Position numbers and translations under genes: made by a program. Below, in pieces: positions 21,301 through 44,362 of a stretch of DNA of 64,000 nucleotides. The stretch is from assembly GCA_004431415.1 (NCBI GenBank), contig QPMI01000092.1, positions 62,001 through 126,000 on the forward strand, in the 5' to 3' direction. Origin of the DNA: Cyanophora paradoxa CCMP329 (taxonomy: Eukaryota > Plantae > Glaucophyta). How positions within the stretch are numbered: position 1 is the first letter of the stretch; every line of letters starts with the position of its first letter. The notes under the pieces are model-generated. The model made no database searches. It had not been told where the DNA came from and worked only from the letters and a program-made list of their open reading frames with translations.

Positions 21301-21753
21301 GAGAATTACTGAGGCTTACTTCATTGGTCCAAAGGTTTATTGCTGCTACTTTGTGAGGTCGAATGGGGAACCAGATCTGCATGTGCGGGCAAAGGGAATT
21401 CCGAAGAGCTGGATAGAGGAGAACTGGCTCCCGAGTGATCCAGTGGCAAAGAAGGAATCCCTTGATAACCGAATTGCTTTGGAGGCCTTCACAAGGATGC
21501 TAGAGGAACGTTATCAGCCGCAGTGCACACTAGATTCTAAACTAGCGCGTGTTTTCAAGCCCAATGGAAAGCAACGCGAGGCTGGGATCGACTTCAGCTC
21601 TATAATTCAGATTCCATTCAGCCGAATACTCAACAAAACGGAGTATACGAAACGAAAGATTATTCCTGACGAATATTACAGCACGGTTCCCATGAATACG
21701 TTCGAGCAACAGGCGGCAGCCAAGAAGGCAACCTTGACTTTGTCGATCTCTGA
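18382..21753 (+). CDS. polB: Protein-primed family B DNA polymerase, copy A (three 1-nt indels)
   Basis: Exo AADFET, FFNGSGFD, YLRADV; pol DVVSLYPTAM, KILLNGLYGKFAQ, YTDTDS; Cys/His zinc-finger-like segment N-terminal to exo. Confidence 0.95.
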
Positions 21754-22909
21754 TGCTTACTATGATCCTGAGACAGGGCTCCAGTCAGCTGCACGGATAG
21801 CTAAGAAGCTGAAGATGCCGCTGGCAAGGGTGCAGGCAGTGCTCGCGAAGCTGTCCACAGCTCAGCGCTTTGCAAAACCGGTGAAAGAGAAGCCGTACAC
21901 CAGTATCACGTATAATCACCCAGAGAAGTATTATGAAGTGGATTTGATCGATGTCAGTCCCTATGCTAGAAGCAACCGCGGAGTGCACTTCATCATGAAC
22001 GCTGTGGATGTTGTAACCCGGAAAGCGTACAGCATTCCAATGAAAAATAAAAGCGAGGGGACCCTGCTTTCGACACTGCGGCAGCTCATAGCAAGCTTTC
22101 CGGTGAAGCCCGATATCATTCAGACGGATCAGGAATTCAAGGCTACAGCTGCAACTATGCTAGCAGCCGAGGGGATAAAGCACAATGCTGTCGAGGCGCA
22201 TCGTCCGCAGGCAAATGGAAAGGTAGAGCGCTTTAATGGTACTCTGAAGCGGATCATTGCAAGATACATGGAGGCGTACGACACCGACCGATATATCGAT
22301 AAGCTGCCATCCTTTCTGCGCAACTATAACAGCTCCGAGCATAGAGCTATTAAAACTACGCCTGATGAGGCAGCAAAGAACCCAGCACCTGTTATTGCAA
22401 GAAACGATTATCAGAGAGAGGCGTACGAGCAGCAGCACTATCTGAAAGAGGCCGAGTTCAAGGTAGGAGACTCTGTGCGCGTAAAGCTGGCGAGGAACAC
22501 GTTTGATAAATCAACGAAGCCGACGTACTCAAAAGAAGTCTATCAGATTGAAGCTATAGGAGGATTTGGCCCTCTGCTCAAGTTCAAGCTTGCTGGATAC
22601 GACAAGGAGGTGAGCTACCAGCAGCTGCTGAAAGTGCCAGCAGAGACAGAGCAGCGGCGGGCTGGAAGTGCTGCACAGAATGCCCTTCGCCGTCGAAAGC
22701 AGGAGCTGAATTTGATGCAAGAGAATCTGGACAAGTCAGACATCGAAAAAAATAAGAGACTTCTCCGGGTTCAAAAGCAGCTGCTTACTGCTGGAACCAA
22801 GGCGTTAAATCCAGGAGGTTCGACAGCTCGGTGGTACACGTCTTTTGAAAATGCGAAGGCCTCTTATTCTGCGCCCAGCAACACGAGGACACTTAGACCG
22901 AGACGCTGA
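21692..22909 (+). CDS. Polinton-type rve (DDE) integrase, copy A
   Basis: YYDPETG, EVDLID, AVDVVTRKA, IQTDQEF, GKVERFNGTLK, YNSSEHRAIKTTP, FKVGDSVR. Confidence 0.95.
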   Translation: MNTFEQQAAAKKATLTLSISDAYYDPETGLQSAARIAKKLKMPLARVQAVLAKLSTAQRFAKPVKEKPYTSITYNHPEKYYEVDLIDVSPYARSNRGVHFIMNAVDVVTRKAYSIPMKNKSEGTLLSTLRQLIASFPVKPDIIQTDQEFKATAATMLAAEGIKHNAVEAHRPQANGKVERFNGTLKRIIARYMEAYDTDRYIDKLPSFLRNYNSSEHRAIKTTPDEAAKNPAPVIARNDYQREAYEQQHYLKEAEFKVGDSVRVKLARNTFDKSTKPTYSKEVYQIEAIGGFGPLLKFKLAGYDKEVSYQQLLKVPAETEQRRAGSAAQNALRRRKQELNLMQENLDKSDIEKNKRLLRVQKQLLTAGTKALNPGGSTARWYTSFENAKASYSAPSNTRTLRPRR

Positions 22910-23123
22910 TTCCAGCGGAAGCTAGGGCACTCTCAAGTACAGAGATTCGATTTATCAACCGAGTGCGATAGCGCTTGTTTGCCTCGTTGTGAGCATCTTT
23001 GTGCGAAGCCTGATATCTGCTGCTCTGCTCAATGTGTCTCTGGCGATATGCAGGGTCCTCGCTGTATTTTCTGCGGTGGTACTCTGCTTTCTTCTCCCTT
23101 CTTGCTTGAATAATCTCTGGCGT

Positions 23124-26100
23124 CGTGAGATCCGTCGACGTCCTGGGATTAGTGAGATCCGTCGACGTCCTGGGATTAGTGAGGTCGTTGTATGCGATCG
23201 TGTACGTGTGCTGCCGTGTGAGCGGTCCAAGGAGGCCGTGGGGGGCGAACGCGGACGACTGCACGCGCGAGGCTAGGCTCGGCGTCCCGGCCGACGGGGT
23301 CTCCGATGGAGCTACGGACTCGGCGGTGGAGCCACCACTGTCCGAGCTGGAGTCGTCGCCGTCAGAGGTTCCCGTCGTCTCGGTCCCCGTAGGACTACGA
23401 CGCGGAGGCCTGTTACTGCCAGATGGCTTGAAGACAACACCCTGGATGTGACCGAAGCGTGCCAGTCCCGTCGGCTCGTTGGTGCGCAGATCCTTGAAGT
23501 CGGTCGACCAGACGACGAAGGGTCGGACAAAGGGCTTGCGCGCAATCCCAGGGTTCCGACGAATGTACTCGTCCGTGCCCACGAGCTTGATCTTGCCGTC
23601 GAGGCGCGGGTCCCAAATGTACGCGCGCGACTCCTCTGCCTTCGTCGTAGTGATGTAGTTCATGATGTTAGTGAAGCGCGTGCGGCCTTCGTACGGGTCG
23701 ACAGGCGCGCCGTGGGGGCCGTGACCAATGTAAATGTGGGGATCTGACGAAGGAGGCTGTCGTTGTCCGGATCGCCCAGGGAGTGACGCAGGGGGAGGAC
23801 GTCGACGATCTGTACCGCCCGGTAGGCTTCGCGGCTAGTGAACGTGATGGGCCGCCTCGTCGCCGCGTCGACGGTGGCGTGATTGTAAACGAATTGTTCC
23901 AACCAACCGTGGAGTAGCGCCCGCGCCTGCGGTTCGCGACTGAAGATGGCGGCGCCGAATTCATTGTAGAATGGATCGAATGTGAAGTTGCCATATTCGG
24001 CGTGACGGAATTGCTCGTGTATGTCGGCGTATCGCTGTTCGAAATCCATAATAGCGTTGCGCACTGCGCTCGCGTTGACGTCATAGACACTGGGACGATG
24101 CGGGTGTGACGGATCGTTCGTGGGATCGAAGTCAGCGCCCCGGACTTGGGCGTTGAGTGCGTTGATGACTCCATCCGGGAGTCGGAATGCTACGGGCCAG
24201 CAGTGGTTTCGATCCATGTCGACATCTTCGCGAGCCGCCGGGGGTGTCTCGTGCTTGATCTGGACCGCCAACCAGTCGTTGGTTGCCTTGTGCAGTAGGG
24301 ATTCGAAGGCTGTGATTAAATGTGCCGGGTCGACGCGTTCGCAGTCAGGGTACTCGACCTCGTACCATTTGTCGAGTTTGGCACTGCGCGCCACTTCGCC
24401 TGAAGCCGTGAAGCGGAAGTGCAGCTCATCCTCGTGGCTACGAACGTAGTCGATGATGATGTTCCCGAGTTCCCCGGTAGGGGCTCGAGGAAGAACGACA
24501 AGGCACCGTGCAGCTTGACTGCCGCCGCCAGGTACGCTGCGATTCCGTACACCCAAGTGTGTACCGAAAGCGGGAACCCCAGGACCTGGTGGACGACGGG
24601 GGCGTTGCAGGCGCGGTGCCCGTGGGCCCGCGACGACGCAGAGACACGACGACGCCCCAGGGCCAGTGTAGTCATTGACGGACACCGGGAAGTACTTGGG
24701 TCGGGCCGCACGGGTGCGGCCCCGCCGCCTCGTTTGGGGTTTCCTCGTGCCCGCGATGATCTGCTGCCAGGTGTTCCGGTTGTTCGCGTCGAAGATAGTG
24801 ATGTGCGAGCGGTTCTGGATCGTGTTGGGGCACCGCGGCTGGGTCCGGCCGGTGCAACGTGCGTGAATCGGACGATTCGAGGGCCGCACAGGTCAGCATT
24901 GGCCGGCGTAAGAGTCATGGGCGGCGCGTTGAGGTCGTCGGGCATGGCAATCTCGTAGAAGCATCGTTCGACATCTTGACGTGAAGCGGAGTCACGGAGG
25001 TGCGCGTGGTTGTCCTCGTCGTAGATGCAGTCGAAGTAGTCGGCATACTTGTTGGCCGGGTGGAACTCGTCGGCGGCCGTGATCAGGAACGATCGGAAGG
25101 GCAGGCCCGCGCGGTTGTGCTGGCTGAGTTCGCCATGGCCGGGAGCACCGGCGCGGTACGGGTAGGTGCCGGGGCCGACGCCGTAGCGTAGGACACGACT
25201 GAGTGCTCGCGAGAAGTTCGACCAGCGTACGTGCATCTTCATGAGGAATGGGCGCATGTACGGGACGCGCCGGAGAAATGCCTCGAGACCAGAGTCGCCG
25301 AGTTGCACGTATGGCATGTGGACCTCACCTAGGACGTGCATGTACTTCTTTGTCGTGGTGGCGGGATGAACTGGGGGTGGGTCCCGAGTCGGGATTCCCT
25401 CCAGCTCTTCGACCGGCGGCGGCTCCGGGAGCTCCTCCGGTCTGTGCCCGTCCTCCACAGTGAGCTCCTCGGTCAGATCAGCCGTCTGTCCGAACGGGGC
25501 TGGGCCTCCGAGGATGTGAGCCGCGACGGCGAAGATGTGGGCGCGTGTCGCCCATGTTCCTGGATCGTTTTGCAGTACGCTGTGGCCAGGAAGTCCGTGT
25601 TCGTGAAGAGAAGCGGTGTCATGAAGATGTGATAGGAGGTATCCCGTCCCGGATCAGTATCCAGAGGTAGGAAGTCACCTCCAGCTCGCGTCTCCTCGGG
25701 GCTGTATGTGCGCATGCCGTACGGGAGTGGGGGGCGAGGATTGTGGAGACGGATTGGGTACCAGTCGTTGATCGTTTGGGCGAATAATTCCCCGTTGATG
25801 TGATTGTTGCGCCGTCCAAAACCCGCATAGAACGTGTCGCGCTCGTTCTCCGTCGAATCAGGTCGCGGTTCCCGTCGGACCATCACGCCGCTCAGATCCG
25901 GCCACACTCCGTGCTGGTAGCCAGCGCCGTCGACGACCGTGAAGCCCTTCGCCCATTCCTCGTTGAGGAAGGCCCAGAAATAGACGTCAGGAATGTCAGC
26001 GTTCTCCGAGAGTAGCACCTCCTTGAAAGGAACAGTGTGGAGTTCGCTCAAAATTCTGGAGATGATGGAGTCGACCTCCTCGGGAGTGAGCCGGGCGGCC

Positions 26101-29100
26101 TTGCGCTCCTTCTTCTGCAACTTCTCGTCATTCGGTCGCTTCTTGCGGGGCGCTTGCGCTCTGTTCCGTAGACCATAGCGCGGGCACGAAGCCCGAAGTA
26201 CGTGTTGGAGTTCCAGAAAGTGTCCTTGCTCATGTCGTCGACAAGTCCAACGAGGGAATCCCAGTCAGGAACGCGAGGCAAGATGTCGATGCCGTCCGAC
26301 GTCCACTGTGTCAGGTATCCGTACTCGTCAACGTCGCGCTCAGGGGCCGTGGGACCGGGACGGCGAGAGGGTCGGTGACGGGTACCATCGGACTGGGGAG
26401 GACAGGGAGTAGGTGATCGCGGTAGCGCGGGTAAAGCATGCAGTAGAACAGATTCAATCGATGCTCGGCGTCCAGGAGGAAGGCCCGTGTTACCGCCAAG
26501 CGCTGGGTGGTCGTAGCCTTGCTAAGTGCAGTGTCGAGTCGAGCGACGAGGCCGAAAGCAAGCTTGCTCGCAGTACGAGTGCTTGACTCCGTCTCGAGCT
26601 TGTACGCGCGACGCATGGCCTCGAGAGTCAGCTGGAGGATATGGGAGCGCCACGCAGTTTTGCACGCCAGGAGCGCCGCCTCTTCAGGGTGCACCATTAT
26701 GTAACGGTCAGAGTTGTAATAGAGCTCGACAGCTGGCTCGGGCTGCTTCGGGGTGAAGACGGGGGCGTGCAGTCGCGATTCGAGACGGATCGGTTTGCCC
26801 TTCTTGGCGAGTTGACGCTTGTGCATGAACGTAGTGATTGACATCGCGACAACGGTGGTGTCATGTAGCTCGGCGAGCCTTGCCAGCGCAGTCGTCTCCG
26901 TGACAGACGCGGCGACGACGTTCGTGAAATTTGAGGGAGGACGCCGGAGCGGTGACGGGACAGTCCGTGCCGAAGACAGTGGTGTAGGTCGGACTCGCTG
27001 ACGGGGGCGTGCGCAGACGATGGACATCGCGTGCCGCGACCACTGCTAACTGGCTGTTCAGCCGGATCTCCTCCGCGAGCTCGGCGGTCGCCCGCTGGTT
27101 CGTAGCCGGGTTCGCGTCGGATTTCGGGTTGAAACGGGACGTGTAGTAACGGCGCAGGAAGTTGCCGGGGCCCTCGACGTCGGCTGTGATGTTGACGAGG
27201 CGGAGTACGTTCTCGACTTGCTCGGTGAGCATTGACAGCAACGGCGCGTGACTCGTCGGCCATGGACGGTCGGAGCTCGGTGCTGGGTCACGAACGTCGT
27301 AGAGGTGAGCAAATCGGCTATCCCCGTAGCGGTCGCGCGTCTCGTCCCACTTGTAATGGTCGAAGTATGCAGCGATGTCCCACGCCCGCGCCAGGGCCGT
27401 CGAACGCATCGACAAGGCGATGTCGGGCGGCGGTGAACCGTGTCGAAGCGTAGACAGATAGATGTCGTCAGGTCCTGTGAGCGGGGCCGTGAACTTGACA
27501 GTTTGGACCAGTTGCCTGATTGTTGCAAGGCGCGTCGCCGTGTTCGTGATCTTGTCGAAGTTCAAGAACCGTTCATCGCTCTCCGTCATCTCCACGTCGT
27601 AGTGCAGCGTCCGGAGATTGCGGGCAAGGTTGACAGCCACCTGAAGGATGCACGGTACGACTGGAGTCTTGGACTGGTGTACAAGAGTGAACTCTGTCGG
27701 TGTCAAACCAAACAGCTCCAGCATCTCTGGCCGTCCGAGGACATCGGCGAGCGGGTCGTTCGGGTGAGGCCACGTGGTCGCCGTCTCCCCAGGCGCGAAG
27801 GGCTGAGCCCGCGCGAGGCGCATGATGACGTGGATGACGGAGCGGAATTCGGTCAGATGTTGAAGGAGGTAGTGAGCCTGGTCACTCGGGCGAGTACCCA
27901 GCAACGGTTGCCCAGTAGGCGTGTTGCTGCGGGCAGCTGCGAGGTGCATGCAGCTCGTGAGCTCGCTGGCGGCGAAGAGGGTCGGCGTCTCAGGGGTCTT
28001 GCGCCAATCCGTCGTCGTCGTTGTGACCATGAAGCGTCGCGGCGTGTCCAGGTACGCACGCAGCTGGTTGTGCACCACGGGCTTGAGGCGAAGGATCGTC
28101 CAGGCGTGGCGGTGTCCAAGGTCGGCGGCCACGTCCTTGATCTCGGGCTCCGAGTCGCTGGACGTGTCTTCGTCGGTGTCAGGAGGACTGTCACGGTCGT
28201 CGTGAGGGCTCGGCAAGGTCGGCGTGTCGACGATGATTCCCCTCGAAACGCGCGGGTCGCCCATGGGCACGTCCTCGGTCCTCTCAGTGCCCGACGAGTC
28301 GGCAGTCGTCGAGTCAGGCATCGACGCGTCGGTCGGTGCAGTGTAGTCGGGGTGAAGTGACGGGATCGGCAGCATCGGGGGTTGGGCCGGGCTCTGCGGC
28401 GGGGCCGCCGTCACAGTCGTGGCCGGGGCTGGCGGGGCGTCGGACGGGGCCAGTAGCTCAGGCGCAGGCGACGGGGCCGTCGAGACCGCAGCCACGGCCG
28501 TGGGGGACGGGACGCTGTGCGGGGTCGTCAGCGAGGTCGCCATCGCCGGTGCGATGGGCGAAGCATCTCGAGCGGCCGTCGACGAGACCGGCGTCTCGAG
28601 AGCGGGCGTCGGGGCCACCGGAGTCGTTGTCACGGGTGCAACGGGCTGGGCGTCCGGAGTCGTCGTCGCGGGTGCAACGGGCTGGGCGTCCGGAGTGTCC
28701 GTCGACGAGGCCGTCACCTCGGGCGCAGGGGGTGGGTCGTTCCGCGGGGCCGGGGGCTCCGGGGCGTCGGTCGGCGGTGTCACCGGTGCCGTTGGGCACG
28801 TCATGTCGTCGTCGTGGTAGTGAGGGTTGCCCGGGGTCTGGGGCCGGCTGGTATGAATCGGGAGCGCGCGGCCGCGGCCCCTGACCGTTCCCCCGTGCCT
28901 CGCCGATTGGCGCGGTGGAGCCTGTGCTGCCGCAGTACGGCGACGGGCGTCCATGGTGCGGCCACGAGCAATACCACCGATTGCAGCCTGCAAGTAGGGG
29001 GCTTGCGCCGCGGCCTGCACCGGGTCCTCTCCCTTGGCAGCTTCGGCGTCGAGGCGAGCCTGCAGTTCACGTGCGAGCTGTTCGTCGGCCAGCAGCTGCG

Positions 29101-30591
29101 CGTGCTTGTCGGGCGGAGTGGTCGGGGACGGCGTTCCAGGCGTGCGGCGACGAAGGATGTCTGTCAACACGTTGTGGACTTCGAGGTACCTCGCCGAAAA
29201 CTGCGTCGGGTCCCGAAGTCGCGCGTTCTCGGCGGCGAGTCGCAAGTACTCCATGTCGACGTCGTTGGTTCGGAGAGTGAGATGCGGCTTAATCTTGTCC
29301 CGCTGTCGAGCCGGCCAGTCGTGTAGAACGGCAGCGACGTAAATCGACGCCAACTTGCGGCTCACTCCCCAGCTGCAGCGACCGTGGTCTCAGGCACCGG
29401 GTAGGGCGGAAGATCAGTTGGTGTCGGGCCGAGGCGCGTGTTCGGCTCATCGACGGGGTGCATTAACGCGTGAGCATGGTAGAACGCCGGTGCCGACAAG
29501 CAGACGGGAAGCGACGCGTTCACAGTCGTTCGCGCGAGTCGGGACGTGTCCTGCCCAGAGGTGTTGACAACTCCCGGGCGAGAATGATTGGCCGAGTGCC
29601 TATCGGTCCAGTACTCGCGTCGCGAACGCCAGGCCGGAGGGTGCTGGCACGGACGGTGAAGGGGCTGACGTCGACGTTAAGGAAGATGTCAGCGACCCGA
29701 GGCCAGTCGTCGTTCCCCGTCAAAGACGTCGTTCCCTGTGGGGTGATATCCATTAACAGACCGATAATCCGCAGGAAGAGCGTCTTCATTTCCATCGTCA
29801 CTCCGTACAGAGCGTCGAGCGTGATGTCCGCCGGTGCATCGTCAGGTCGCAGAGTACTCGGGTACGGCGTGCGCTGGCGTGAGGTTGGCGACGGTACGGG
29901 GCAATTGCGGACGAACTCCATGTACGGCGGCGTTGTGCAGAGGCGGCAGTGCTCCTGAAGCTCGACGTTAGTCATTGTCACCGTGTTGCCCGTGGTCGAG
30001 TCGATGTACTCGTAGTAGCGGTGCGCAATGCTGATCACTGATGCACGGAGCCGGTGGTTCACGATGACGGGTGAGCCATCGGGGCCGATGCTGCACGTGT
30101 GGCACGGTGCAGGCATGTCGACTGGCGACAGGAAGAGAAGAATTTGCTGTCCCCCAACACTGACCATGATCTTCTCGACCGTGCGAGAGGCGAAGACGCG
30201 GTCTCCACCCTCGCGCTCATACCTCCCCGCTGCCTGGTGGCGACGAGCGATGAGCGTGATCGAGTCTTCCGCAATGTCCATCAGCATCTCGCGCAACTTC
30301 CGGTTGCGGTTGATGGGGTCATTGTCAGCCCTGTCCTCCGACGCCTTGGGCCGCAGTACGGCGGGCGCGGGTGGAGTGGGCGTGGTCGGCGGGACGATTG
30401 GCGTCTTGTCCTCAGGGGCGAGGCCCTCTGCCGTCGCGACAGAGCTGGGTCCGGCGACGGGGTCGGTCGGAGCGTTTGCCGCGACGAAACGAGCGTAGGC
30501 GTCAGCAGCCTTTGCCGAAGTCGCGTCAGGGCCTGAGGCGAACCGTAGCTCACCCTCGCGCTCGAGAATGTAGACGAGAAGTAGGATCGTA
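23124..30591 (-). CDS. Duplicated retrotransposon polyprotein segment (copy 2)
   Basis: Same sequence as 6229-13669; ORFs 29520..30605, 26861..29365, 26311..27027, 25473..26120, 24316..25458, 23660..24889. Confidence 0.75.
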
Positions 30592-30906
30592 TGTTGTACA
30601 CCCATGGACCCCGCTTACGGCCACTTCGCTTCGCTCCGGGCCGCGGTTCCATGGGTATTTAGCGTCTTCCCCTATCTAGATCGATCTGATTTTGCCGTGC
30701 GTGTACCAAAATCGTTTTACACGTTTCCCTCTGCTATTACGTGCCGGAGGGCGTGTGCGGGGGTACCTTCGGGGTTGAAAAATAAATTTCGATTTAGCTT
30801 CGAGGAGGTAGCTAACGGGAGAGCCTTTGAGGCTGATTGTGAATTCACTTTAGGGTATGAGCTTAGGCATTCTAGTGTCCACTGAGAGGCCGCACTAGAA
30901 ATTCCC
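30592..30906 (+). repeat. Left TIR (copy B)
   Basis: Same as 13670-13984; preceded by ATCGTA at 30586-30591. Confidence 0.96.
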
Positions 30907-30972
30907 TCACCCCGACCCTTTCTCAGCTTCTAGCATAGGAGCAGTGATCGCAATTTCATTTCAGAATGTTTT

Positions 30973-32353
30973 CTACTCGTCATCACTCATATAGACTTCA
31001 GGGCCCTCCTCTGGGCTGTCTGGCTCGTTCAAGTCAACCTCCATGTCCCGAGGGATGTTCGCAGAAATGTGCGCGCGAATCATTGCAGTAGCGTCTCTGA
31101 TGTCCATTCCCTGAACGTTGAATTCGACAGGTGCCTGAGCAGCCATCGCAGCTCCATTCTGCGCTTGCATGACATGCCCTCGCACTCTGATGTTGGTCAC
31201 AACTCGGCGAAAGAATGCATTCCAAACTTCCTCGGGAACGTCTGCTTGTGGAGTTAACTGCTGTGGATTCAGTTACACGTGGAGCGATCTTACCCTGCAG
31301 CGCTGGAATATCCATTATATATGTGTTCGAAACAATGACGATATCGGTTGCGTAACACGGAACCCAGCCGTATAGAATTCGAAGTCGTTTCTTGCCCTTG
31401 TTGCACAAGTCGTTGAACATAGCGATTGCATACTCGCCATAATATTCGTCGAAGCCGAGAATAGGTTGGCCATTGAACTCATCAGTAAATTTTTCGTTGT
31501 CGCGAGGATTATTGCTGATCTTCGGCTTCCAGTAGACAGTGCCAGGCGGAAACATGTTGATAGCTGTGGTTTTACCAGAACCAGGGTCGCCACAAATGAG
31601 ATGAATTCTTGAGAAATGTAGCTTGGGCCTGGCCACAGCAAGGCATACTTCTGACAGATAGGATCTGTATCTGAACGCTCTCGATCCGAACTCGTGGATA
31701 ACTTGTTCGATTGTAGCTTGATTTTCGACGATGTATTCCGTTATTACGTGCAAGTCGGTTCGCTTCCCTCGGCAACTCAAAATTTGGCCAACCTCCTTAA
31801 AGTCGAAAATATCCGAAGTGAACGCATAATCACCCCGCATCGACAGCAGGTTAGATCGGCGACCCTGATTCGACTGATAGGGCCATCGAATGTTGAGCCC
31901 TGAGTTTATAAACATTTTGGCCACACTGCTGAGGCGGTGCTGTTTGTTGAAGTACAGGAAACCCTGGGCAAGTATTAAACTGAGAATGAAGATCAACTTT
32001 GCGGGAAATCTGATAAACCGTACCTGCAGTAACATAAACCATGGATTTTCTGGATCAATGACTGCAATGAAGCAAGCATAACGGCATTTTCGCCGTGGTT
32101 CATTCGTGTTTTTATCGATGATCGGTTCGCCCGTATCTCTGTTGACAAGAACGCCAAAACGTTCCAGAAATTCTCTATCAAGTTGAGGTCCTCCCCAAAA
32201 GTGCTCTTGAGTGTCGGGATTAAAAATGATGGGCTCACGAATCTCGAAATGGAATACGTTCGACTTGTGTGTTGATTTGCAGTTCGCGGGCGGTATCACC
32301 GGCTGAGCGAAGGCCGGTTGCGGAGGTGCAGCCATAGCCATTGATCTGCGCAT
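30973..32353 (-). CDS. CRESS-virus Rep-like SF3 helicase, introns 31964-32023 and 31242-31293; 422 aa spliced
   Basis: Removing GTACGG...CCCAG (60 nt) and GTAAGA...GCAG (52 nt) gives an uninterrupted 1269-nt frame: WFMLLQ/GFLYF and PALQ/DVPEEVWNAFFRRV. Confidence 0.88.
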
Positions 32354-33481
32354 TAGCGAATTATATTTCAGCGCCAAAAAATAATTACGATCTCAGAGCA
32401 ATTTATACGAAGGGCCCCGACTGCGCTGATATTTGCCACTTTTTTGGAATTATTTTAAAAACATTTAAGAAATTATTATTTTCTGTACCCCCCTCCGCTT
32501 CGCCCCTCCCGCTCGCTTTGGCGCGCGCGCTCGGCCTGCCGGAAAAAGTGAAGAGCGCACATCTACTCGAGCAGAGAAGTGAAGTATGTTGCAAGTGAAG
32601 ACTTTTCCGGGCACTGAGGCTTCTGGATGGCCGGGACGTAGTCAGTTTGAGAGCAGCAAAGGAGTGCACACATTTTGCAGCAGGCAGGCGACGCGCGAGA
32701 CAGCTCTCTTGCCTGTGTAGGCGCTAGTGATGATGTTGCGCGGAGCTCCCTCCTGCTTCCACCGCCGAGGTGCGCTGCAAAGACGCGGGTGCGGCTTCTG
32801 GGTACAAGATCAAGGCCTTTTGCGGGTACCAGTGTTCAAAAATTTAAACGCAACTTCATGATTTTCGCCCTTCGAAATTAATAATACTTTGGCCACGGAG
32901 ATCGCTGTGAAAGTTAATAAATATCTGTGAAATGGACATAATTATACTGGAATTGCGATAATTTTCGCATCCTAAAATACCGTTACATTTCCGAAATTGT
33001 TCTAGTTTGGGTCAGCCTTGGGAGCCTCTCAAAGCGCCGGACCGCCGCCGGTTGTTATGTTTTATTAATTATGGGAAATAATTTGGTACCGGGATGCTAG
33101 CCATTGGTTAGCAAAGTATTTGTTTGGCCCAGCCGGCGGCGCCGGCTCTCTTGCGATTTGCCGACGCTAATTCTTAATTAATTAATTCATGTGCCTAGTA
33201 GGGTAGCTCGGCTAGAACTAGGTTACTAGTAGCCTGAGTGCCAGTGACTCATGATCAGTGACGGTCGCGATCGGACAGTCCGGGAGTACTAGTGCACGTT
33301 GCCCGGCGAGTCGGTGTCACAACGGTAGTCATGTCACGATGCTACTATCATGCTAGTACTACTAGGGCTACGGTACTACGGATTCTTAGTACGGAATACG
33401 TAGCCTAACATACGGTGTGGCTCGAGCCTCGGCCCTCGGAGTGCAGGCCTAGGCCAGCGCTGTGCTGATCATCATGGCATG

Positions 33482-34487
33482 CTTGCAGGTGTCTTTGGGG
33501 CCGCATTTTTTCCACCGGTTGGTCCCCACTTCGAAGACAGATAAAAAACGGTTCATGATCAATCGGTCAACTGCGCATGCCGGCCGGACTCGGGATCTGG
33601 AGTCTGCACTGACCGGACTCTGCCACTGAGTGCAGTACTAGTTCTACGGAACTTCTACCTATACAAAAAATATTTACTGCTAATTATATATAAGGCCGCT
33701 ACTAGGCCCGCTAGTACCAGGCTACTACCAGCCAACTTGCAAGTGTCTTTAGGGCCGCATTTTTTTCACCGGTTGAGCCTCCACTTCCTAGACAGATAAA
33801 AAAAACGGTTCATGGACTAGCCTACTAACTCAGTGAGAGCCTGAGACTAGTACTACTACGGTCACCGGGTACTACAAGAAACATACAGATAACTAATTAT
33901 TATAGGTACCACTACCACCGGTAACAGCCTGGCCCGCTGGCCCACTACCGCCCACAGCCTAGTCTCTCTACTAGCTATAGCTAGCTATATAGTGCACAGA
34001 GAAGGTAGGACTAATTATTATAAAAACTTAATAGCTACATAGTGCACATGCAGAGAAGGTAGGACTAATTATTATAAAATATTAATTTTTTTGTAAATCG
34101 GCGGCCAGCGTCGGCCACGGCGGCCTAGTCTCTCTACTAGCTATATATAGTGCACACTGCACAGACAAGGTAGGACTAATTGTTTATATAATAAGACAAC
34201 ATATATATATATATGTGTGTATGTAGGCTACAGTATAGTCTGTCTTCGAAGTGGAGTCAAACGGGCGAAAAAAAAGCGGCCCTAAAGACAAACAACTTGG
34301 AGACTCCTGCGCAGCTGCGCTGCGAGCCAGCGACTGTGCATGCTGTGCTACCATTAATATTGCAGCGTTAGCAACTTGAACATCTAGGCCTAGCCTCCTA
34401 GGCTATAGCTATGTACATATATATATATATATAGTCTGTCTAGGAAGTGGAGGCTCAACCGGTGAAAAAAATGCGACCCTGAAGACA
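33482..34487. repeat. Direct/inverted repeat block in non-coding region (copy B)
   Basis: Duplicate of 16558-17563. Confidence 0.85.
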
Positions 34488-34627
34488 AGCTCCTAGCAGC
34501 TGCTAGCCGCCCGATGGCCTGCTCGGAGGAGGCTGCTCCTGCCTGGTGCACGACATTCTTTCGTCGTCCTCATTCCTAGGTCTCGCCCTCTAGATCTCGT
34601 CCGACATCAGTGAAGGCAGCTGAAGGG

Positions 34628-35207
34628 ATGGCGCGCGTCAAAGCCACACCCAAGAAGAACACTGCTGGCAAGGCTCCTAGCAAGGAGGCAGTGCTTCGGG
34701 CCGAGAATGGTCGCAAAAATGGCTCAGCTGCAGCCTCTGCGACCAAGCCCGCTCGCTACCGCCCAGGTGCGACCCTTTGCGTCTCTCACGATGCGCAAAC
34801 ACTTAACTGATGTCTGTGCGCGCTCAGGGACCGTCGCTCTGCGCGAAATCCGGAAGTACCAGAAGACCACTGACCTGCTCATTCGCAAGCTGCCATTCCA
34901 GCGGCTGGTCAGGGAGATCGCTCAGCCATTGAGTAATGACGATCTGCGCTTTCAAGCAAGCTCCATTCTCGCGATTCAGTCAGCGGCGGAGGCCTTCCTG
35001 ATCAGTCTGTTTGAGGATGCGAACCTGTGTGCCATCCACGCCAAGCGTGTGACTCTGATGGTGAAGGACATTCAGCTGGCTCGTCGCATTCGCGGAGAGA
35101 TCTCGAAGATTGAGAAGTCTCAGCCTAAGCCTGCAGCTTCGACGTCTCCGGACGTAACCCCTATTACAGCTCTCGCGGCCAATTTAGGTGATCAGCTTCA
35201 GCTGTAG
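34628..35207 (+). CDS. H3: Divergent histone H3 with intron 34767-34827, copy B
   Basis: Same as copy A. Confidence 0.96.
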
Positions 35208-35305
35208 CTGTGCAAGCCTTAAAGAAAACGTGATGATAGTTATCAATCAGAGATTGTGCGCGCTGAATTTCGAAAAAGTTTTCTGATTGTATCATTAATC
35301 GAAAC

Positions 35306-38300
35306 ATGAGCTCCCGAGCCGTAAGAAACAACCTTAGAACCGAAATCAATGAGCTTGCACAGAGGCTATATGAGCGAGGCTATATTAATGGCACGTACAG
35401 GAACTCGCTAGTGCGTCCTCTAACAAACACCAGGACCCACACTGACACACTCCGATCCTCTCTAGCATCACTGCTCAGGCTGCAGGGACAGAAAGGCCTC
35501 AGCGTCCGCTGTACGGGCGAGACGTTGCCGCACATTTCGAGAGGGGGCAGGCTGCGCGAGCAGCAGCAACACAGGAGATTGATGACGTTGCGGAAGCTAT
35601 ATCAGGGCTATTCCGCGAGCAGGCGTCGGCCAACGTTAACGTAGTTCGCACCTATACTCACCACGAGTATCCAGGGCTGCTTTTCACAAAGGACGTGATA
35701 GAGATAGAGCCGACAGCTGATCCAGAGAGAGTGAAAGAATTGACGATAGCGTTTCTGAACGAGCTGCGAGTCCCAGAGAGGATTGGAGCTGCTGTTTTAA
35801 TTCGCTTTCATTTTGAGAATTTCCACATGTACCGCACGCAGCTTGCGACCATAGAGGAGGGCACAATGCAGTCACTTCTAGCAAATCTCGCGGAGAAGAT
35901 GGAGAGCTGGATGCTAGCGCAGCAGCCCTACGAGGACACTGATGTCTGGCCAGTCGTGCAGATCGAGGTGCTTATTGCAGAAAACGCAGCAGGGGCTCTG
36001 GGAAATGTACCTAAGCTGCCCTTTGGAGGGAAGGCCCTAACGATGAACAAGATCTACTGTCCGATCTCTCCAGAGGACAACTGCGTGCTTGAATGCTTTG
36101 AGCATGAGAAGCTCAATCCCGGTCGTCTGAGCCTTGAGAGAGTATACAAGCAGCTTCAGCATGTTGATTACGGTTCGATTCGCACTCAGCTGGGGCTTCC
36201 CCGGGGACTAATTGCAGTCGATGAACCTACCATACGCAAGCTGAGCCAGCACTATAGAATCGATGCAAGCATTTTCGAGTGGATCTCGGACCGCAGCGCG
36301 TCGAAGTTCAAGCTCCTATTTTCAACTGAATTTGGCTTTGAACGCCGAGCCCACCTTTGCGTGGTCGATGCTCACTGCTTTCTAATTAAAGATAAGAGAA
36401 CGTGCGAGATGCAGAAGTGCAGAGCCTGCGGAAAGATGCAGTATGATTTGGCGACTCACAAGGAAACCTGCCGCTTCTGCTATACCTGCCGCTGCGCCTA
36501 CAATCCGAAGGAGGACCATGCAAGCAAATGCGATGAAGCAGTGAGGAACAAGAGCGTTATTGAACGCAAAATCAAGCCATGCGAGCCCGAGGAAGAGTTT
36601 ACAGCCCTAAACTCAGTCATAGCGGCAGACTTTGAAACGTTTGCACCCAACCGCACGACCCACGTTCCGTACGCAGTCGATATGGACATAATTAGCAAAG
36701 GAGAGATCACGGAAACGAAATCGTTCTGCGGCCCCGAAACTCTGGAACAGTTTATGCTCTGGCTTGACGACTGGAAAGAAAAGTCGACTCTAGTATTCTT
36801 CAATGGCAGCGGCTTCGACTTGATATTTATCTATAAGTGGCTTGTCCAGAACCGCCCAGACTGCCAGGTCAAGGTGATGCGCTCATCCGGAAAGATCAAG
36901 AGCATGGAGTGGAAGACGCTGGCCGGGGGAGAGTTTAAAAGCTTCGATCCCTGCTTGCACATACAGGGCTCACTGCGGCAGGCTGGGAAGGACTACGGGT
37001 GCACCACCTTGAAAGGGGATTTTGACCACCGAAAGATAAGAGCTTGGGATGACGTTGAGATTCACAAGGAAGCCTGGAGCGAATATTTGAGAGCTGACGT
37101 TCGGTCAATGACTGAGCTGTATATTAAGTACGCTCGGACATGTTTTGATCTATTTGGGATAAATGTGAATTCGAAGCGCACCTTGACAGCATCGGCGATG
37201 GCTTTTCAGATCCACAGGCAGCTAATGAAAACGGAAGTGCTGCTACCGAAATACAAGGAGGACCAGATTTTTCGCAAAGCGATTTACGGAGGGCGATGCC
37301 TACCATTCAAGCGGAAGTTTGTCTCGAAGGTCCAGATGATTACTTGGTAGATCTGGATGTGGTCTCTCTCTATCCGACGGCTATGTACTTTAATTACTTT
37401 CCCACTGGTAAATTTAAATGCATCACCGATCAAGCGGAGCTAGAGCGATTCCGCAAGTTTATGCTGAGCAGGAAAATGGAACAGCTGTTTGTTGCAAAGA
37501 TTAGCGCTAAAATTCCTCAGGATCTTGTGCTCTCTCCCCTTCCCGCCACGAAGCCAATCTGGGATGGTCTAACTTGAAGCCTATTGAGAAAGAAATGTAC
37601 ACCTCAGTCGATATCTACCGGGCGATAGCACTGGGAGTTGAGATCACAGAGCTGCACGAGGTGTACTTGTTTGAGGGCAAGGAACGAATGTTCAAAGATT
37701 ACATTGAGAAGCTGTACTGCATGAAAGCACGCTCACGAAAGGAACCGCCCAGTATGCTACGGCGAAGATCCTCTTGAATGGGCTCTATGGAAAATTTGCT
37801 CAGCGTCCAGTAATTGAGACAACCGAGCTGGTCTCAAACTACAGACGATTCAAGGAGATACAGCGATCATCGACGATTACGGACATTGACATAGAGAATG
37901 ATACGAGAATGTACGTCACATTTGAGATCCCTGAGTATAGGCGGGATGCCTGCGTTTCGAAGCCTTGCTTTGTTGGTGCATTTATCCTCTCCTACAGCCG
38001 CGAAATCATGGATCGATTTTTGGTGAGGATGAACTCATATAAGGACGTAGAGGCAATGCCATACTACACAGATACAGATTCTATGATCGTGCACAGGAGG
38101 TTTGCTGAGCTTCTGAAGGACTGCATGAAGCAGCCATATTCAGTTGAGGGAATGTCAGAGGAGGAAGGGAATAGAATGATCTGCGAGAGCGAGCTGGGGA
38201 AACTAGATTATGACATCCAAGGGAGAATTACTGAGGCTTACTTCATTGGTCCAAAGGTTTATTGCTGCTACTTTGTGAGGTCGAATGGGGAACCAGATCT

Positions 38301-38676
38301 GCATGTGCGGGCAAAGGGAATTCCGAAGAGCTGGATAGAGGAGAACTGGCTCCCGAGTGATCCAGTGGCAAAGAAGGAATCCCTTGATAACCGAATTGCT
38401 TTGGAGGCCTTCACAAGGATGCTAGAGGAACGTTATCAGCCGCAGTGCACACTAGATTCTAAACTAGCGCGTGTTTTCAAGCCCAATGGAAAGCAACGCG
38501 AGGCTGGGATCGACTTCAGCTCTATAATTCAGATTCCATTCAGCCGAATACTCAACAAAACGGAGTATACGAAACGAAAGATTATTCCTGACGAATATTA
38601 CAGCACGGTTCCCCATGAATACGTTCGAGCAACAGGCGGCAGCCAAGAAGGCAACCTTGACTTTGTCGATCTCTGA
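35306..38676 (+). CDS. polB: Protein-primed family B DNA polymerase (~1120 aa after correcting four 1-nt deletions)
   Basis: Same motifs as copy A; ends YTKRKII...STVPHEY, matching the Polinton PolB C-terminal KR...T.P.GY pattern. Confidence 0.95.
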
Positions 38677-39832
38677 TGCTTACTATGATCCTGAGACAGG
38701 GCTCCAGTCAGCTGCACGGATAGCTAAGAAGCTGAAGATGCCGCTGGCAAGGGTGCAGGCAGTGCTCGCGAAGCTGTCCACAGCTCAGCGCTTTGCAAAA
38801 CCGGTGAAAGAGAAGCCGTACACCAGTATCACGTATAATCACCCAGAGAAGTATTATGAAGTGGATTTGATCGATGTCAGTCCCTATGCTAGAAGCAACC
38901 GCGGAGTGCACTTCATCATGAACGCTGTGGATGTTGTAACCCGGAAAGCGTACAGCATTCCAATGAAAAATAAAAGCGAGGGGACCCTGCTTTCGACACT
39001 GCGGCAGCTCATAGCAAGCTTTCCGGTGAAGCCCGATATCATTCAGACGGATCAGGAATTCAAGGCTACAGCTGCAACTATGCTAGCAGCCGAGGGGATA
39101 AAGCACAATGCTGTCGAGGCGCATCGTCCGCAGGCAAATGGAAAGGTAGAGCGCTTTAATGGTACTCTGAAGCGGATCATTGCAAGATACATGGAGGCGT
39201 ACGACACCGACCGATATATCGATAAGCTGCCATCCTTTCTGCGCAACTATAACAGCTCCGAGCATAGAGCTATTAAAACTACGCCTGATGAGGCAGCAAA
39301 GAACCCAGCACCTGTTATTGCAAGAAACGATTATCAGAGAGAGGCGTACGAGCAGCAGCACTATCTGAAAGAGGCCGAGTTCAAGGTAGGAGACTCTGTG
39401 CGCGTAAAGCTGGCGAGGAACACGTTTGATAAATCAACGAAGCCGACGTACTCAAAAGAAGTCTATCAGATTGAAGCTATAGGAGGATTTGGCCCTCTGC
39501 TCAAGTTCAAGCTTGCTGGATACGACAAGGAGGTGAGCTACCAGCAGCTGCTGAAAGTGCCAGCAGAGACAGAGCAGCGGCGGGCTGGAAGTGCTGCACA
39601 GAATGCCCTTCGCCGTCGAAAGCAGGAGCTGAATTTGATGCAAGAGAATCTGGACAAGTCAGACATCGAAAAAAATAAGAGACTTCTCCGGGTTCAAAAG
39701 CAGCTGCTTACTGCTGGAACCAAGGCGTTAAATCCAGGAGGTTCGACAGCTCGGTGGTACACGTCTTTTGAAAATGCGAAGGCCTCTTATTCTGCGCCCA
39801 GCAACACGAGGACACTTAGACCGAGACGCTGA
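38615..39832 (+). CDS. Polinton-type rve integrase, 405 aa
   Basis: DDE motifs as in copy A; consistent with 6 bp TSD. Confidence 0.96.
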   Translation: MNTFEQQAAAKKATLTLSISDAYYDPETGLQSAARIAKKLKMPLARVQAVLAKLSTAQRFAKPVKEKPYTSITYNHPEKYYEVDLIDVSPYARSNRGVHFIMNAVDVVTRKAYSIPMKNKSEGTLLSTLRQLIASFPVKPDIIQTDQEFKATAATMLAAEGIKHNAVEAHRPQANGKVERFNGTLKRIIARYMEAYDTDRYIDKLPSFLRNYNSSEHRAIKTTPDEAAKNPAPVIARNDYQREAYEQQHYLKEAEFKVGDSVRVKLARNTFDKSTKPTYSKEVYQIEAIGGFGPLLKFKLAGYDKEVSYQQLLKVPAETEQRRAGSAAQNALRRRKQELNLMQENLDKSDIEKNKRLLRVQKQLLTAGTKALNPGGSTARWYTSFENAKASYSAPSNTRTLRPRR

Positions 39833-40106
39833 TTCCAGCGGAAGCTAGGGCACTCTCAAGTACAGAGATTCGATTTATCAACCGAGTGCGATAGCGCTTG
39901 TTTGCCTCGTTGTGAGCATCTTTGTGCGAAGCCTGATATCTGCTGCTCTGCTCAATGTGTCTCTGGCGATATGCAGGGTCCTCGCTGTATTTTCTGCGGT
40001 GGTACTCTGCTTTCTTCTCCCTTCTTGCTTGAATAATCTCTGGCGTAAGAGCAATCGGTTTGCGCCCTGGTTTGCGACGCTGCGCTGACTCCATTCCCTC
40101 GTTCAT
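39816..40106 (-). CDS. Small basic bZIP-like protein
   Basis: RRKPGRKP basic motif; HNEANKRYRTRLINRISVLESAL resembles a bZIP basic region plus short zipper. Confidence 0.6.
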   Translation of the reverse strand: MNEGMESAQRRKPGRKPIALTPEIIQARREKKAEYHRRKYSEDPAYRQRHIEQSSRYQASHKDAHNEANKRYRTRLINRISVLESALASAGISVSV

Positions 40107-41152: not shown

Positions 41153-41974
41153 TTAAGATAAGAATTTAATACGTTTCTTTTTAGGGATAATAGGGGATTG
41201 CTCTTGTTTCGATTCTTCTTCTTTTTGTCTTAGCCCGAAGGGCAAGGAGCCCTCCTTGGGCGACGCCCATTTCGTAAAACGAAAACTCTTATCTTCAACA
41301 GCCTTATCAACATACCATGCAGTATCATACTTGGTTCCATCCAGCACAATGCACTGATAATTATGCGCCCACTTTTCAAACATGTCTATAAACTCATCCT
41401 TTGGTAGGTGGCTAAACTCTCGATAGATAGCCTCAAGCTCTGTGTGATTAGAATAGCTAAAGAAAAAACAGTAATCAGCATTAGAACGAATCGATTGACT
41501 AAGAGCTGTTAACTTTTGGGTCATTAGAATAGTTGAAATGTTAAAATGCCGCCCCTGAGTGAAAAGACGATTAACAACCTTGCTATTTCGAAGATCAACT
41601 GTTTCGGAGGCGGCAACAAGATCATCAAGCACAAGCAATATCTGCGGTGATCTCTTTTTATTTTCAATCAGACTGCGCTGAGAATCTATAATTTCTGCAA
41701 CGATTGCTGGGATAAAGTCATCATAGATCTCCTTAGTTATTGCAGCATATTCACCATTAAATTTGGTGGCTGTGAAAACAACAACCCTATCAATTTTTGG
41801 ATACAGTGATCTCAAAAGATGTTTGGTGCAGTAGTACGATTTGCCGCTATTACTTTTGGAAATAAACAGCCCTTTGAAGGGAACTTTGATATCGCCTGGT
41901 TGAAACTGAGATAAGTCATCAGTGTTTTCGCTATCCATCAAAAATAAAGTCGCAGAATTGAGAGCTGATGCCAT
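41153..41974 (-). CDS. A32-like genome packaging ATPase
   Basis: Walker A SKSNSGKS, Walker B LLVLDD, A32 motif QGRHFNISTILMTQ, IRSNADY. Confidence 0.95.
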   Translation of the reverse strand: MASALNSATLFLMDSENTDDLSQFQPGDIKVPFKGLFISKSNSGKSYYCTKHLLRSLYPKIDRVVVFTATKFNGEYAAITKEIYDDFIPAIVAEIIDSQRSLIENKKRSPQILLVLDDLVAASETVDLRNSKVVNRLFTQGRHFNISTILMTQKLTALSQSIRSNADYCFFFSYSNHTELEAIYREFSHLPKDEFIDMFEKWAHNYQCIVLDGTKYDTAWYVDKAVEDKSFRFTKWASPKEGSLPFGLRQKEEESKQEQSPIIPKKKRIKFLS

Positions 41975-43363
41975 TTAAAGGTTGACCTTGCGAAGGCCCG
42001 CAGCATCAACAATTAGGACAGTGTGCAGAAGAGCTCGGACCTGAACGTAGATCTTGTTGGCTGCATCATAAGCGGCAGGGTTCATGATATTAAGGAAGCA
42101 GCTGCTGCTGTTGGTGAGATCCACGAAACCTGTTTGAGCTGCATTGCGGATAGCCTTCTGGCCGTCTACACAGAATGGCAGGCCAGTCAAGACATACCGA
42201 TTGAGAGGAGCATCCAGATTAGAGCATTTGAAGACATCAGCGAGAAGCTCAGCACCTTGCAGCAGGGGCACAGGCTCGTTAGAATAAAGTCGCTGGCCAT
42301 TCAATTCGCAGGAAATAGTTATGTCACGAGCATTGGCCTCGGTTTTGAGGACACTGTGTTTTCCATCAGTTTGGTTCACATTTGTTTGCTTGCGAATGCT
42401 AACGAAAAGGCCATAGCAGAGTCCACTGATTTGAGACAGATTAATCCGGGTGGGCGCACCAGCACCTGCATAGGTAATTGAGTCAGCATCAACCCAACCA
42501 ACTTCAGTTGCAGGAATGGCAATCCCCGAAGATTTGACTTTCTCAATCACCTGGGCAAAAGTGGCCTCATCAACGTTGATGCAGTGAGCTATAATCTTCG
42601 GATTCGAAAGCTCGGGTTTTTCAGGAGTGACAGTGAGGACATTGGGAGTTATATTCTGGCCAATGTTTGCAGGGGATGCAGCAGCAGCTCCTACGCTCCC
42701 AAGGCCATCGTCTTTAGAGGCATCACCGTTTGCGGCATATTCTGCTACAAACCTTCCACCATAGCTGGTTTCAACGAAGCCCTGGGCGCGGTCACGGAAC
42801 CAAACCTCCACAGACACCTCGCCGGAGAGCGCACCAATTGGAAGCACTGAGCCCTCCCAGGGGCAGGGGATCTTTACACTGAAAATACCTCCAGCGCGAT
42901 TGCTCCCCTGAGGTGGGGTTCCATGGAGCCAGCCACCAGACCGGTATTTCTTTTTAAGCTGAGCATCGTCATTGAAAATCAGAGCGCTGTGAACAAGCCA
43001 GTCCTCAGGGACGATGTAGCTGTAGGAAGCATATTTGATTTCAATTCGCTTTACAAGAGCACCAACAGACCGCAGATAACCAGTGCGAACCAGGTCAGTG
43101 TCACCAGTAAAAGCGGTCAGCTCGGGCAGGGTAAACTGGAGTTCAAGCCCCTGAAGGAAATTGTAACGGGGTAGGAAATAAGTAACCCTCTTTCCGAAGC
43201 AGTCTCCATAGTCATTGCTAGGGTTGACAACGACACGCACAGGCTTTGTTTGGCTGGTTAGACCTAACATAAGCTCGTTATTCATAAAGAAATCCTTAGC
43301 TTCCTGCGGAGTTGTGAGCAGCTCCTTTAGACCAAGACGTTGCAAGTTCTGGGTAACATCCAT
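41975..43363 (-). CDS. Major capsid protein (double jelly roll), NCLDV-like signatures
   Basis: FGKRVTYFLPR..FLQGLELQFTLPEL, GALVKRIEIKY, DWL, VKIPCPW...LPIGAL..EVSVEVWFR; 462 aa; adjacent to ATPase. Confidence 0.85.
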   Translation of the reverse strand: MDVTQNLQRLGLKELLTTPQEAKDFFMNNELMLGLTSQTKPVRVVVNPSNDYGDCFGKRVTYFLPRYNFLQGLELQFTLPELTAFTGDTDLVRTGYLRSVGALVKRIEIKYASYSYIVPEDWLVHSALIFNDDAQLKKKYRSGGWLHGTPPQGSNRAGGIFSVKIPCPWEGSVLPIGALSGEVSVEVWFRDRAQGFVETSYGGRFVAEYAANGDASKDDGLGSVGAAAASPANIGQNITPNVLTVTPEKPELSNPKIIAHCINVDEATFAQVIEKVKSSGIAIPATEVGWVDADSITYAGAGAPTRINLSQISGLCYGLFVSIRKQTNVNQTDGKHSVLKTEANARDITISCELNGQRLYSNEPVPLLQGAELLADVFKCSNLDAPLNRYVLTGLPFCVDGQKAIRNAAQTGFVDLTNSSSCFLNIMNPAAYDAANKIYVQVRALLHTVLIVDAAGLRKVNL

Positions 43364-43405
43364 TGAAGTGTTTATAATTCAAACGGAAGAAAATAATTCG
43401 GGGAC

Positions 43406-44362
43406 TCAGTTTGACGAATTGATCCAAGGATATGTCTTTGACCTTTTCTGGAGCTGAAGCTTGGCGAGCTCGTAGACAACATCACCATTTGGTTCATCTG
43501 GGCCATAACGAATTTCGAGTATAAATGAGACAGGACCTCCATTTAAATCAGCAATTCGCTGCATAAAATCGTAAATCTCAATAGTCACAGAGTAGAGGTC
43601 CAGCTTTGAATAAATATACTTGTACAAAGGATGTGCTTCAGTTGAATCATAGTATGCTATCTCGCCTGGACGAAGGACACTTGGAATGCTCAGCTTCGAG
43701 AAGAAGCCAGGTATTGACGTGTTCGGCATACTGACAAGGTCACCAATTTCAGGAATTCGTAGGAGCACATGATCATCAGGAGTGACATCAGGCTCATAAG
43801 CGCCTGCTATATATTCAGTATTTATAGATAATGTCTTTGACCGAATTGGTAGAATTGATCTCAGCCCTAGAAGCTTTGCAGTTCGCTGAGCCCTTGCAAC
43901 GGCCTGGTAGTTTCTGACTTCCCGCCCACCCTGGTTCGTTGGCAACATCAGAGCAATAAAGAACTCGAAGTTAGCTGTGAACCCTATTAATTTGATCGCT
44001 GAATTATACGTGCACGTGATACCTGTTCCCGTCAACCTTTCGTTTATCTCTGTCACAAGCGAGGTGACGTCGTAATTTCCAGGTGGAATTGCAATGTTAT
44101 TCCACGCTCCAAATCCGGCCTGAGGTGGGTCGGGTCCTTCATTAGTGGGATCATATTTGCACCAATATATATAGGTGTTAAAGACTAAATCCTCTGCCGG
44201 ATCGAGTACATCAATTGTGCTCATAGTGTTGGGGATCTCAGCTGATACCAAGCGCACGGCTTTCACATCCTGATAAACTTTAGGCAGTCTTACTTTAAAT
44301 TTCGAGGTGGATGTCAGCTCCTCCGCTTGGTGACTTGCAATGCAGACGTAGTCCGTAGGCAT
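43406..44362 (-). CDS. Minor capsid / penton-like protein 1
   Basis: FKVRLPKVYQDVKAVRLVSAEIPNT, IPPGNY...LVTEIN, C-terminal DLNGGPVSFILEI. Confidence 0.8.
   Translation of the reverse strand: MPTDYVCIASHQAEELTSTSKFKVRLPKVYQDVKAVRLVSAEIPNTMSTIDVLDPAEDLVFNTYIYWCKYDPTNEGPDPPQAGFGAWNNIAIPPGNYDVTSLVTEINERLTGTGITCTYNSAIKLIGFTANFEFFIALMLPTNQGGREVRNYQAVARAQRTAKLLGLRSILPIRSKTLSINTEYIAGAYEPDVTPDDHVLLRIPEIGDLVSMPNTSIPGFFSKLSIPSVLRPGEIAYYDSTEAHPLYKYIYSKLDLYSVTIEIYDFMQRIADLNGGPVSFILEIRYGPDEPNGDVVYELAKLQLQKRSKTYPWINSSN

Follow-up and report, generated by a model that had tools for sequence, protein, structure and literature searches.

The locus examined here raises the question of what a Rep gene of the type found in ssDNA (CRESS) viruses is doing inside a dsDNA Polinton-like virus: whether the gene is spliced, whether its product could still nick DNA, and which role, if any, it might have in its carrier. 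The window, that is, the whole stretch of DNA analysed, covers 64,000 nt of Cyanophora paradoxa CCMP329 (assembly GCA_004431415.1, contig QPMI01000092.1, positions 62,001–126,000 of the forward strand); coordinates below are those of the window.

The Rep gene lies inside a complete Polinton-like virus

The CRESS/circovirus-like Rep gene (32353–30973, minus strand) adjoins the inner side of the left TIR of a complete, integrated Polinton-like virus of 25.4 kb (30592–55966), recognised by its TIRs, TSD and gene content. The left TIR (30592–30891, 300 nt) is 100% complementary to 55667–55966, and both ends are bordered by the 6-bp TSD ATCGTA (30586–30591 and 55967–55972); the empty integration site appears as a loose end in short-read runs X2 and X3. 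A Pfam scan of the element ORFs identified pPolB (PF03175, E 9.8e-57) followed by an rve integrase (PF13683, E 1.2e-7) at 35306–39832 on the plus strand, where the frame breaks fall at one-base indels that distinguish the two assembly copies, and an A32-type packaging ATPase at 41153–41974 on the minus strand (PF04665, E 1e-9). A double-jelly-roll major capsid protein (41975–43378, minus strand) was predicted with Atlas from an alignment-free score of 0.98 to clusters in which 12–30% of the members carry Capsid_N; it had no PDB sequence match. The presence of pPolB, integrase, TIRs, TSD, A32 ATPase and the predicted capsid places the element in the Polisuviricotina, of the pPolB plus rve-INT type, and 275 relatives were found for its pPolB. 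Two minor capsid protein candidates (43406–44431 and 44381–45277) gave no significant Pfam match, no protease family that could mark a maturation protease was matched among the element ORFs in Pfam, and Rfam returned nothing in 30500–56100. The flanks (1–13669 and 55967–64000) consist of GC-rich retrotransposon sequence coding for RT, RNase H, protease, an integrase zinc finger and a CCHC knuckle; cDNA-like contigs of run X5 map onto the left-flank sequence.

The remaining reading frames of the element include a patatin-like lipase gene (45269–46789), a fibre-like ORF of 1941 codons (46760–52600) that contains tandem repeats of 36 nt and, at its C-terminus, a Peptidase_S74 chaperone domain, an adjacent pair of ORFs of ~280–300 codons each (52927–54689) that look alike by eye and lack a Pfam match, and an HNH-AP2 endonuclease gene (55065–55655).

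The assembly contains the Rep gene twice, as ‘copy A’ (14051–15469, minus strand) falls inside a 16.9-kb duplication in which 6230–23123 is a tandem repeat of 23152–40046 with 35 differences, all of them one-base indels and none a substitution. We compared short-read contigs from four (X1, X2, X3 and X5) of 22 listed runs. Contigs from X1 and X2 were identical to copy B over 30877–33785 and a contig from X3 over 30877–32463, in each case with no other letter and no gap, and in X1–X3 the contig ending at 23152 ran on into the sequence preceding 6230, not over the tandem junction. Because the short-read contigs match copy B exactly and skip the junction, we regard copy A as a probable duplicate created by the assembly rather than an independent gene, and base the reading of the gene on copy B. 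Copy A, whose read-through of intron 2 depends on a one-base difference missing from the short reads, was rejected as independent support for the gene model as a likely assembly artefact.

Two short introns are predicted in the Rep gene

The predicted gene model has three exons and encodes 422 aa, from an ATG at 32353 (or 32341) to a TAG at 30973, arranged as an HUH-fold domain with an altered active site, an oligomerisation domain, an SF3 ATPase and an acidic C-terminal tail. Exon 1 (32024–32353) carries motif I followed by an insertion of ~30 aa, the position of the metal-ligand Glu and that of the motif II His; exon 2 (31294–31963) carries motif III, the oligomerisation domain (GKRTDL), Walker A (GDPGSGKT), Walker B (FDE) and the motif C Asn; exon 3 (30973–31241) carries an arginine pair (31209–31204) and the acidic tail. 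Predicted intron 1 (32023–31964, 60 nt, GTACGG...CAG with TTAAT at −15) is located inside motif II, in frame and without a stop codon. Predicted intron 2 (31293–31242, 52 nt, GTAAGA...CAG with TTAAC at −16) shifts the frame, and the arginine pair and the acidic tail are reached in frame only after its removal.

To rank these introns against other possible excisions, 271 GT..AG pairs of 40–110 nt in the gene were scored with a profile built from 123 CRESS Reps. Intron 2 was the best single excision of the 271 (146.5 versus 138.9 bits unspliced) and, once it was removed, intron 1 came first of 163 (148.9 versus 146.5 bits), with a lead of only 0.7 bit over an alternative 60-nt excision that uses a poor GTTTAT donor. 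The spacing of the conserved residues responded in the same manner: Tyr92 and Gln110 are 18 residues apart after splicing and 38 apart before it, compared to 14–23 in 109 matches, and the spliced Asn323–Arg346 distance of 23 residues falls within the 15–30 found in 121 matches. We rejected a further intron within the insertion that follows motif I, where the best excision gained 0.4 bit. As an internal control for intron size we used the neighbouring histone H3-like gene (34629–35207, plus strand), whose predicted 61-nt GT-AG intron (34767–34827) splits RYRP/GTVAL at a site that the conservation of H3 determines; TTAAY occurs 15–25 nt from the 3′ end in all three introns. Both predicted Rep introns thus have the sequence features of the U2 type, namely GT-AG ends, a branch-like motif and an excision that restores the protein. 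Two introns of 60 and 52 nt had been proposed in the initial annotation, the second as the solution to the apparent frameshift of copy B, and both proposals agree with the ranking and the restored frame.

Neither of the two top-ranked splice choices restores a His at motif II, and a retained intron 1 would add 20 hydrophobic residues within the motif, again with no His. The only cDNA-like contig over this part of the gene, from X5 (31826–32128, depth 3.5), crosses intron 1 unspliced and without a gap, and the contigs of this run end in what we take to be a SMART cDNA adapter; intron 2 had no coverage among the X5 pieces listed. Retention of the introns in transcripts had been named as evidence against the initial annotation, and this contig retains intron 1, although it may represent pre-mRNA or DNA.

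Both domains of the Rep are of CRESS-type ancestry

A phmmer search of 1.84 billion representatives gave 123 matches at E ≤ 0.001 (best 5.6e-10) with 22–34% identity. Viral_Rep and/or RNA_helicase was present in all 35 matches scanned with Pfam, 18 of the 20 matches looked up were on contigs of 1.1–3.6 kb, and the best PDB sequence match was the PCV2 Rep (E 1.1e-8). The N-terminal part alone scored 0.91 to Cressdnaviricota Rep clusters in the alignment-free Atlas comparison, where ten of the ten best family matches belonged to one clan. On an HUH profile built from 55 matches not chosen on that domain, the protein gave a weak signal of 11.1 bits, compared to 52–119 for intact matches and at most 6.4 for shuffled sequences (648 of 1000 reported). 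Pfam, applied to the unspliced frames and the single exons, found no Viral_Rep, and its RNA_helicase scores of 14–16 bits fell below the 21.5 cut-off.

The structural model (pLDDT 78.5) was built on an alignment of 112 CRESS Rep sequences, which makes its fold match partly circular, yet the Atlas comparison and the independent profile agree with it; a model from the single sequence (pLDDT 33.7) was unusable. Foldseek placed vientovirus and PCV2 Reps at the top and, among viral models, CRESS Reps. The oligomerisation and ATPase domains of the model matched the PCV2 Rep (PDB 7lar) with Z 15.2 and rmsd 2.1 over 145 residues, and residues 24–187 matched the Rep nuclease of the nanovirus FBNYV with Z 8.2 and rmsd 2.5 over 94 aligned residues, so that the N-terminus adopts an HUH fold in this partly circular model. 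The poxvirus D5 helicase, absent from the seven phmmer PDB matches, reached Z 6.8; we rejected a D5-type origin of the helicase, given the higher score of PCV2 and the HUH-like N-terminus. An HUH fold and a helicase that sides with the CRESS Reps had been set as checks on the initial annotation, and both outcomes uphold its view of an ssDNA-virus Rep inside a Polinton, as does the location of the gene within a bounded element.

Taken together, these results support a CRESS/circovirus-type ancestry of both Rep domains. Domain trees, which contained unnamed matches only, gave the protein a long branch with neighbours that differed by domain, and no close relative of the Rep was found by word-indexed search, in viral contigs or in metagenome contigs; the capsid protein and the N-terminal pPolB frame likewise had no close relatives in viral contigs.

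The nuclease site is altered in three catalytic residues

Residues were counted in an alignment of the spliced model with the 123 Rep matches. The metal-ligand Glu is replaced by Val (32062–32060), whereas Glu is present in 109 of the 123 matches and Val in none. In motif II, which reads LLQGF, the His has become Leu (32032–32030); 112 matches have His there and none has Leu, and the neighbouring Gln, shared with 110 matches, is kept. Motif III reads YAFT, with Thr in place of the Lys of 114 matches and Thr in none, and motif I reads FHFEI, with FE for FT (Thr in 101 matches). The motif III Tyr (31828–31826) aligns with the Tyr of 117 of the 123 matches in MAFFT, whereas HMMER puts a different residue in that column; the catalytic Tyr thus likely remains, judging from the alignments. 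In the duck circovirus Rep, the equivalents of the replaced Glu, His and Lys are two of the three metal-binding residues and the residue proposed as general base (PMC9973303), and their replacement strongly predicts that nicking ability has been lost. The initial annotation had read all three motifs in this way and had recognised the His and Lys changes, from which it proposed an HUH-inactive Rep; it overlooked the replacement of the metal-binding Glu.

Divergence was also uneven along the protein. The mean identity of the HUH domain (18.0%) was below that of all 107 full-length matches, compared to 23.8% for the oligomerisation domain, which exceeded 13 of the 107, and to an SF3 domain that exceeded 2 of them, in a set of matches selected mainly on the oligomerisation and SF3 domains.

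The ATP site is kept and the DNA-gripping residues are replaced

The helicase retains the equivalents of PCV2 K180, D216, N256, R276 and R277, which represent Walker A and B, motif C and the arginine pair, and has Phe at the equivalent of W202. Motif B′ is altered, with Leu-Tyr in place of K240-G241 (Lys in 111 of the 123 matches, Leu in none), and the sensor 3 residue R228 is replaced by Asp, which occurs at this site in no match. K240-G241 forms pore loop 2, which grips ssDNA in the PCV2 Rep (PMC8406172). A basic run, KGKKRLR, adjoins the replaced pore lysine and could stand in for it; a non-basic residue occupies that site in 4 of the 123 Reps, all intact. The helicase is thus CRESS-type and not D5-type, and it is not fully intact: the earlier description of it as intact applies to Walker A/B, motif C and the arginine pair, and fails at motif B′ and sensor 3. 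By motif criteria, the protein is predicted not to be a functional CRESS Rep.

The Rep and H3-like genes form a block with predicted introns at the left end

The Rep and H3-like genes are divergent and separated by a non-coding array (33490–34487) of four ~53-nt repeats, two direct and two inverted, around AT-rich 36-nt repeats. The array, 1.1 kb upstream of Rep, might function as an origin or in regulation, or might consist of small nested elements. The H3-like protein has a divergent N-terminal tail and an extra C-terminal tail, and it shares 75–78% identity with H3 from plants as well as from animals; a literature search for H3 in such viruses found nothing clearly on topic.

Predicted introns were found in the Rep–H3 block only, pPolB, the capsid and the fibre being long single frames (773, 463 and 1941 codons). 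The predicted intron of the H3-like neighbour suggests that the block may at some stage have been part of a host genome. The initial annotation had concluded that the Rep was domesticated long enough to gain introns, a step that is weakened by this possible host derivation and by the introns that CRESS Reps can bring with them, as reported for gemini-, genomo- and circoviruses (10.1101/687855).

Short-read depth was used to ask whether the Rep belongs to the core of the element. In all of X1–X3, the mean depth over 31165–32386 equalled the depth of the one contig listed there, which indicates one contig on Rep at a likeness of at least 85%. At pPolB, up to four contigs lay at one place, and among the listed ones the differences reached 29 of 910 letters. 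Sister elements in the sample thus appear, as a hint only, to be without a close Rep, contigs being able to show presence and not absence. In 160 pPolB loci (80 viral and 80 metagenomic), mostly distant (22–34% pPolB identity) and many of them short, the Rep profile gave no match below E 0.09.

Possible roles of the disarmed Rep

We tentatively favour, at somewhat below even probability, a nicking-dead, ATP-binding ring protein with an accessory role as a decoy or regulator, and not as the replication helicase. A circovirus-like Rep situated in the left-end cargo region would still assemble through its oligomerisation domain and bind ATP, while the catalytic metal would not be bound and the pore would grip DNA poorly. 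Such a protein could act as a DNA-binding or dominant-negative decoy that occupies DNA sites of the Rep type or enters Rep rings and does not cut, with interference with co-infecting ssDNA viruses or regulation of the element as the outcome, and the virus itself would be replicated by its own protein-primed polymerase. The decoy role is a hypothesis by analogy to the avipoxvirus Reps. The avipoxvirus apvRep-2 is a Rep that a dsDNA virus took over from a krikovirus, for which exaptation or a dominant-negative defence was proposed, and it shares with the Cyanophora protein the three-domain cressdnavirus architecture, the inactivated HUH/HUQ motif and the retained Tyr and Walker A/B (PMC10193959). 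In contrast to apvRep-2, the Cyanophora Rep is carried by an integrating Polinton-like virus, has predicted spliceosomal introns and keeps the arginine pair.

The initial annotation had instead proposed that the nuclease-dead Rep serves alongside pPolB as the SF3 helicase or origin-binding protein of the element, for which papillomavirus E1 and polyomavirus large T would be the analogues. This role is compatible with the retained Walker A/B, motif C and both arginines, with a match of the model N-terminus to the E1 DNA-binding domain (Z 7.0–7.1), with the repeat array upstream of the gene, and with the finding of no other helicase family among the scanned element ORFs. We nevertheless consider it unlikely, since the pore-loop Lys/Gly and the sensor 3 arginine are replaced, close sister elements seem to lack the Rep, and none of the 160 pPolB loci carried one. 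In addition, pPolB enzymes generally displace strands unaided. Stand-alone SF3 helicases do adjoin pPolB in polisuviruses (10.64898/2026.10.13.758929), which speaks for the helicase role.

Slightly less probable is a passenger gene, in which a host-endogenised Rep gained its introns in the host, was picked up together with the H3-like gene as one block, and now drifts without function. The confinement of predicted introns to that block would fit such an origin, as judged by the long single frames of the core genes. The unspliced cDNA-like contig would also fit, as would the intermediate codon use of the Rep (r 0.51 to the element core and 0.44 to the flanking retroelement), whereas its GC content of 0.48 is like that of the element and differs from the 0.60 of the flank. 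Against drift stands the selective nature of the changes, with all ATP-site residues kept and nuclease residues lost, and the 422-codon frame, open without a stop or frameshift at only 22–34% identity to any match, argues against a long-dead relic.

The favoured accessory role can be extended to a spliced, disarmed decoy that would poison the Rep rings of co-infecting ssDNA viruses and travel together with a histone H3 mimic in an exchangeable cassette that bears introns. We regard this extended version as improbable; if true, it would represent an ssDNA-targeting defence module in a Polinton. Least probable by far is a separate ssDNA virus or Rep transposon inside the Polinton, or a Rep still nicking by unusual chemistry, for which the MAFFT alignment of the catalytic Tyr and the upstream repeats can be cited, against the loss of two of the three metal ligands, the other residue that HMMER aligns at the Tyr column, and the lack of a capsid-sized ORF between Rep and H3 and of the nonanucleotide NANTATTAC in 30592–35400 (its five matches in the element all lie at 38593 or beyond); the last two of these points also speak against the Rep region being a Cressdnaviricota virus.

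Relation to known captured Reps

Precedents exist for a captured, nicking-dead Rep, with nearly the same decay in apvRep-2. HHV-6 U94 is likewise a captured Rep with a dead endonuclease and conserved Walker A/B, but its donor was a parvovirus and its carrier a herpesvirus, and several of its helicase functions were found by experiment to be retained (PMC10193959). Within the subphylum Polisuviricotina, circovirus Rep-like nickases were reported as a replicase class of Gulliviroviridae virophages (10.64898/2026.10.13.758929), and gene flow from ssDNA viruses to polisuviruses has therefore been noted already; unlike those nickases, the Rep described here stands beside pPolB and an integrase and looks nicking-dead. 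CressRep adomaviruses join a cressvirus-type Rep to adenovirus-like virion genes, but there the Rep is the replicase class, whereas the Cyanophora Rep accompanies pPolB, an integrase and TIRs (PMC11071296). The closest solved structure, the PCV2 Rep, is an active nickase-helicase of a circular ssDNA genome (PMC8406172), and the equivalents of its K240, G241 and R228 and of its nuclease Glu, His and Lys are all changed here.

Passages of PMC8502044, PMC11253617, PMC12220804 and PMC9952930 describe no such Rep gene. A literature search found no report of a nuclease-dead, spliced CRESS Rep in a Polinton of the pPolB–integrase type, and the supplements of 10.64898/2026.10.13.758929 could contain one. 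Polinton-type viruses would join poxviruses and HHV-6 as dsDNA viruses with a captured, nuclease-disabled Rep, captures that point to repeated, unexplained exaptation. The Cyanophora protein would provide a natural test case for a disarmed Rep, with the ATP site and ring domain kept and the nicking and DNA-gripping residues lost. Introners have been described in dinoflagellate polinton-like elements (PMC12166617), and in a large protist survey viral genes were predicted with a gene finder for prokaryotes, such elements being assumed to be intron-free, so that spliced cargo could be missed (PMC10120064). Another large-virus carrier is possibly represented by the 21,435-bp contig of P0045, an intact CRESS-type Rep that was not found among the viral contigs.
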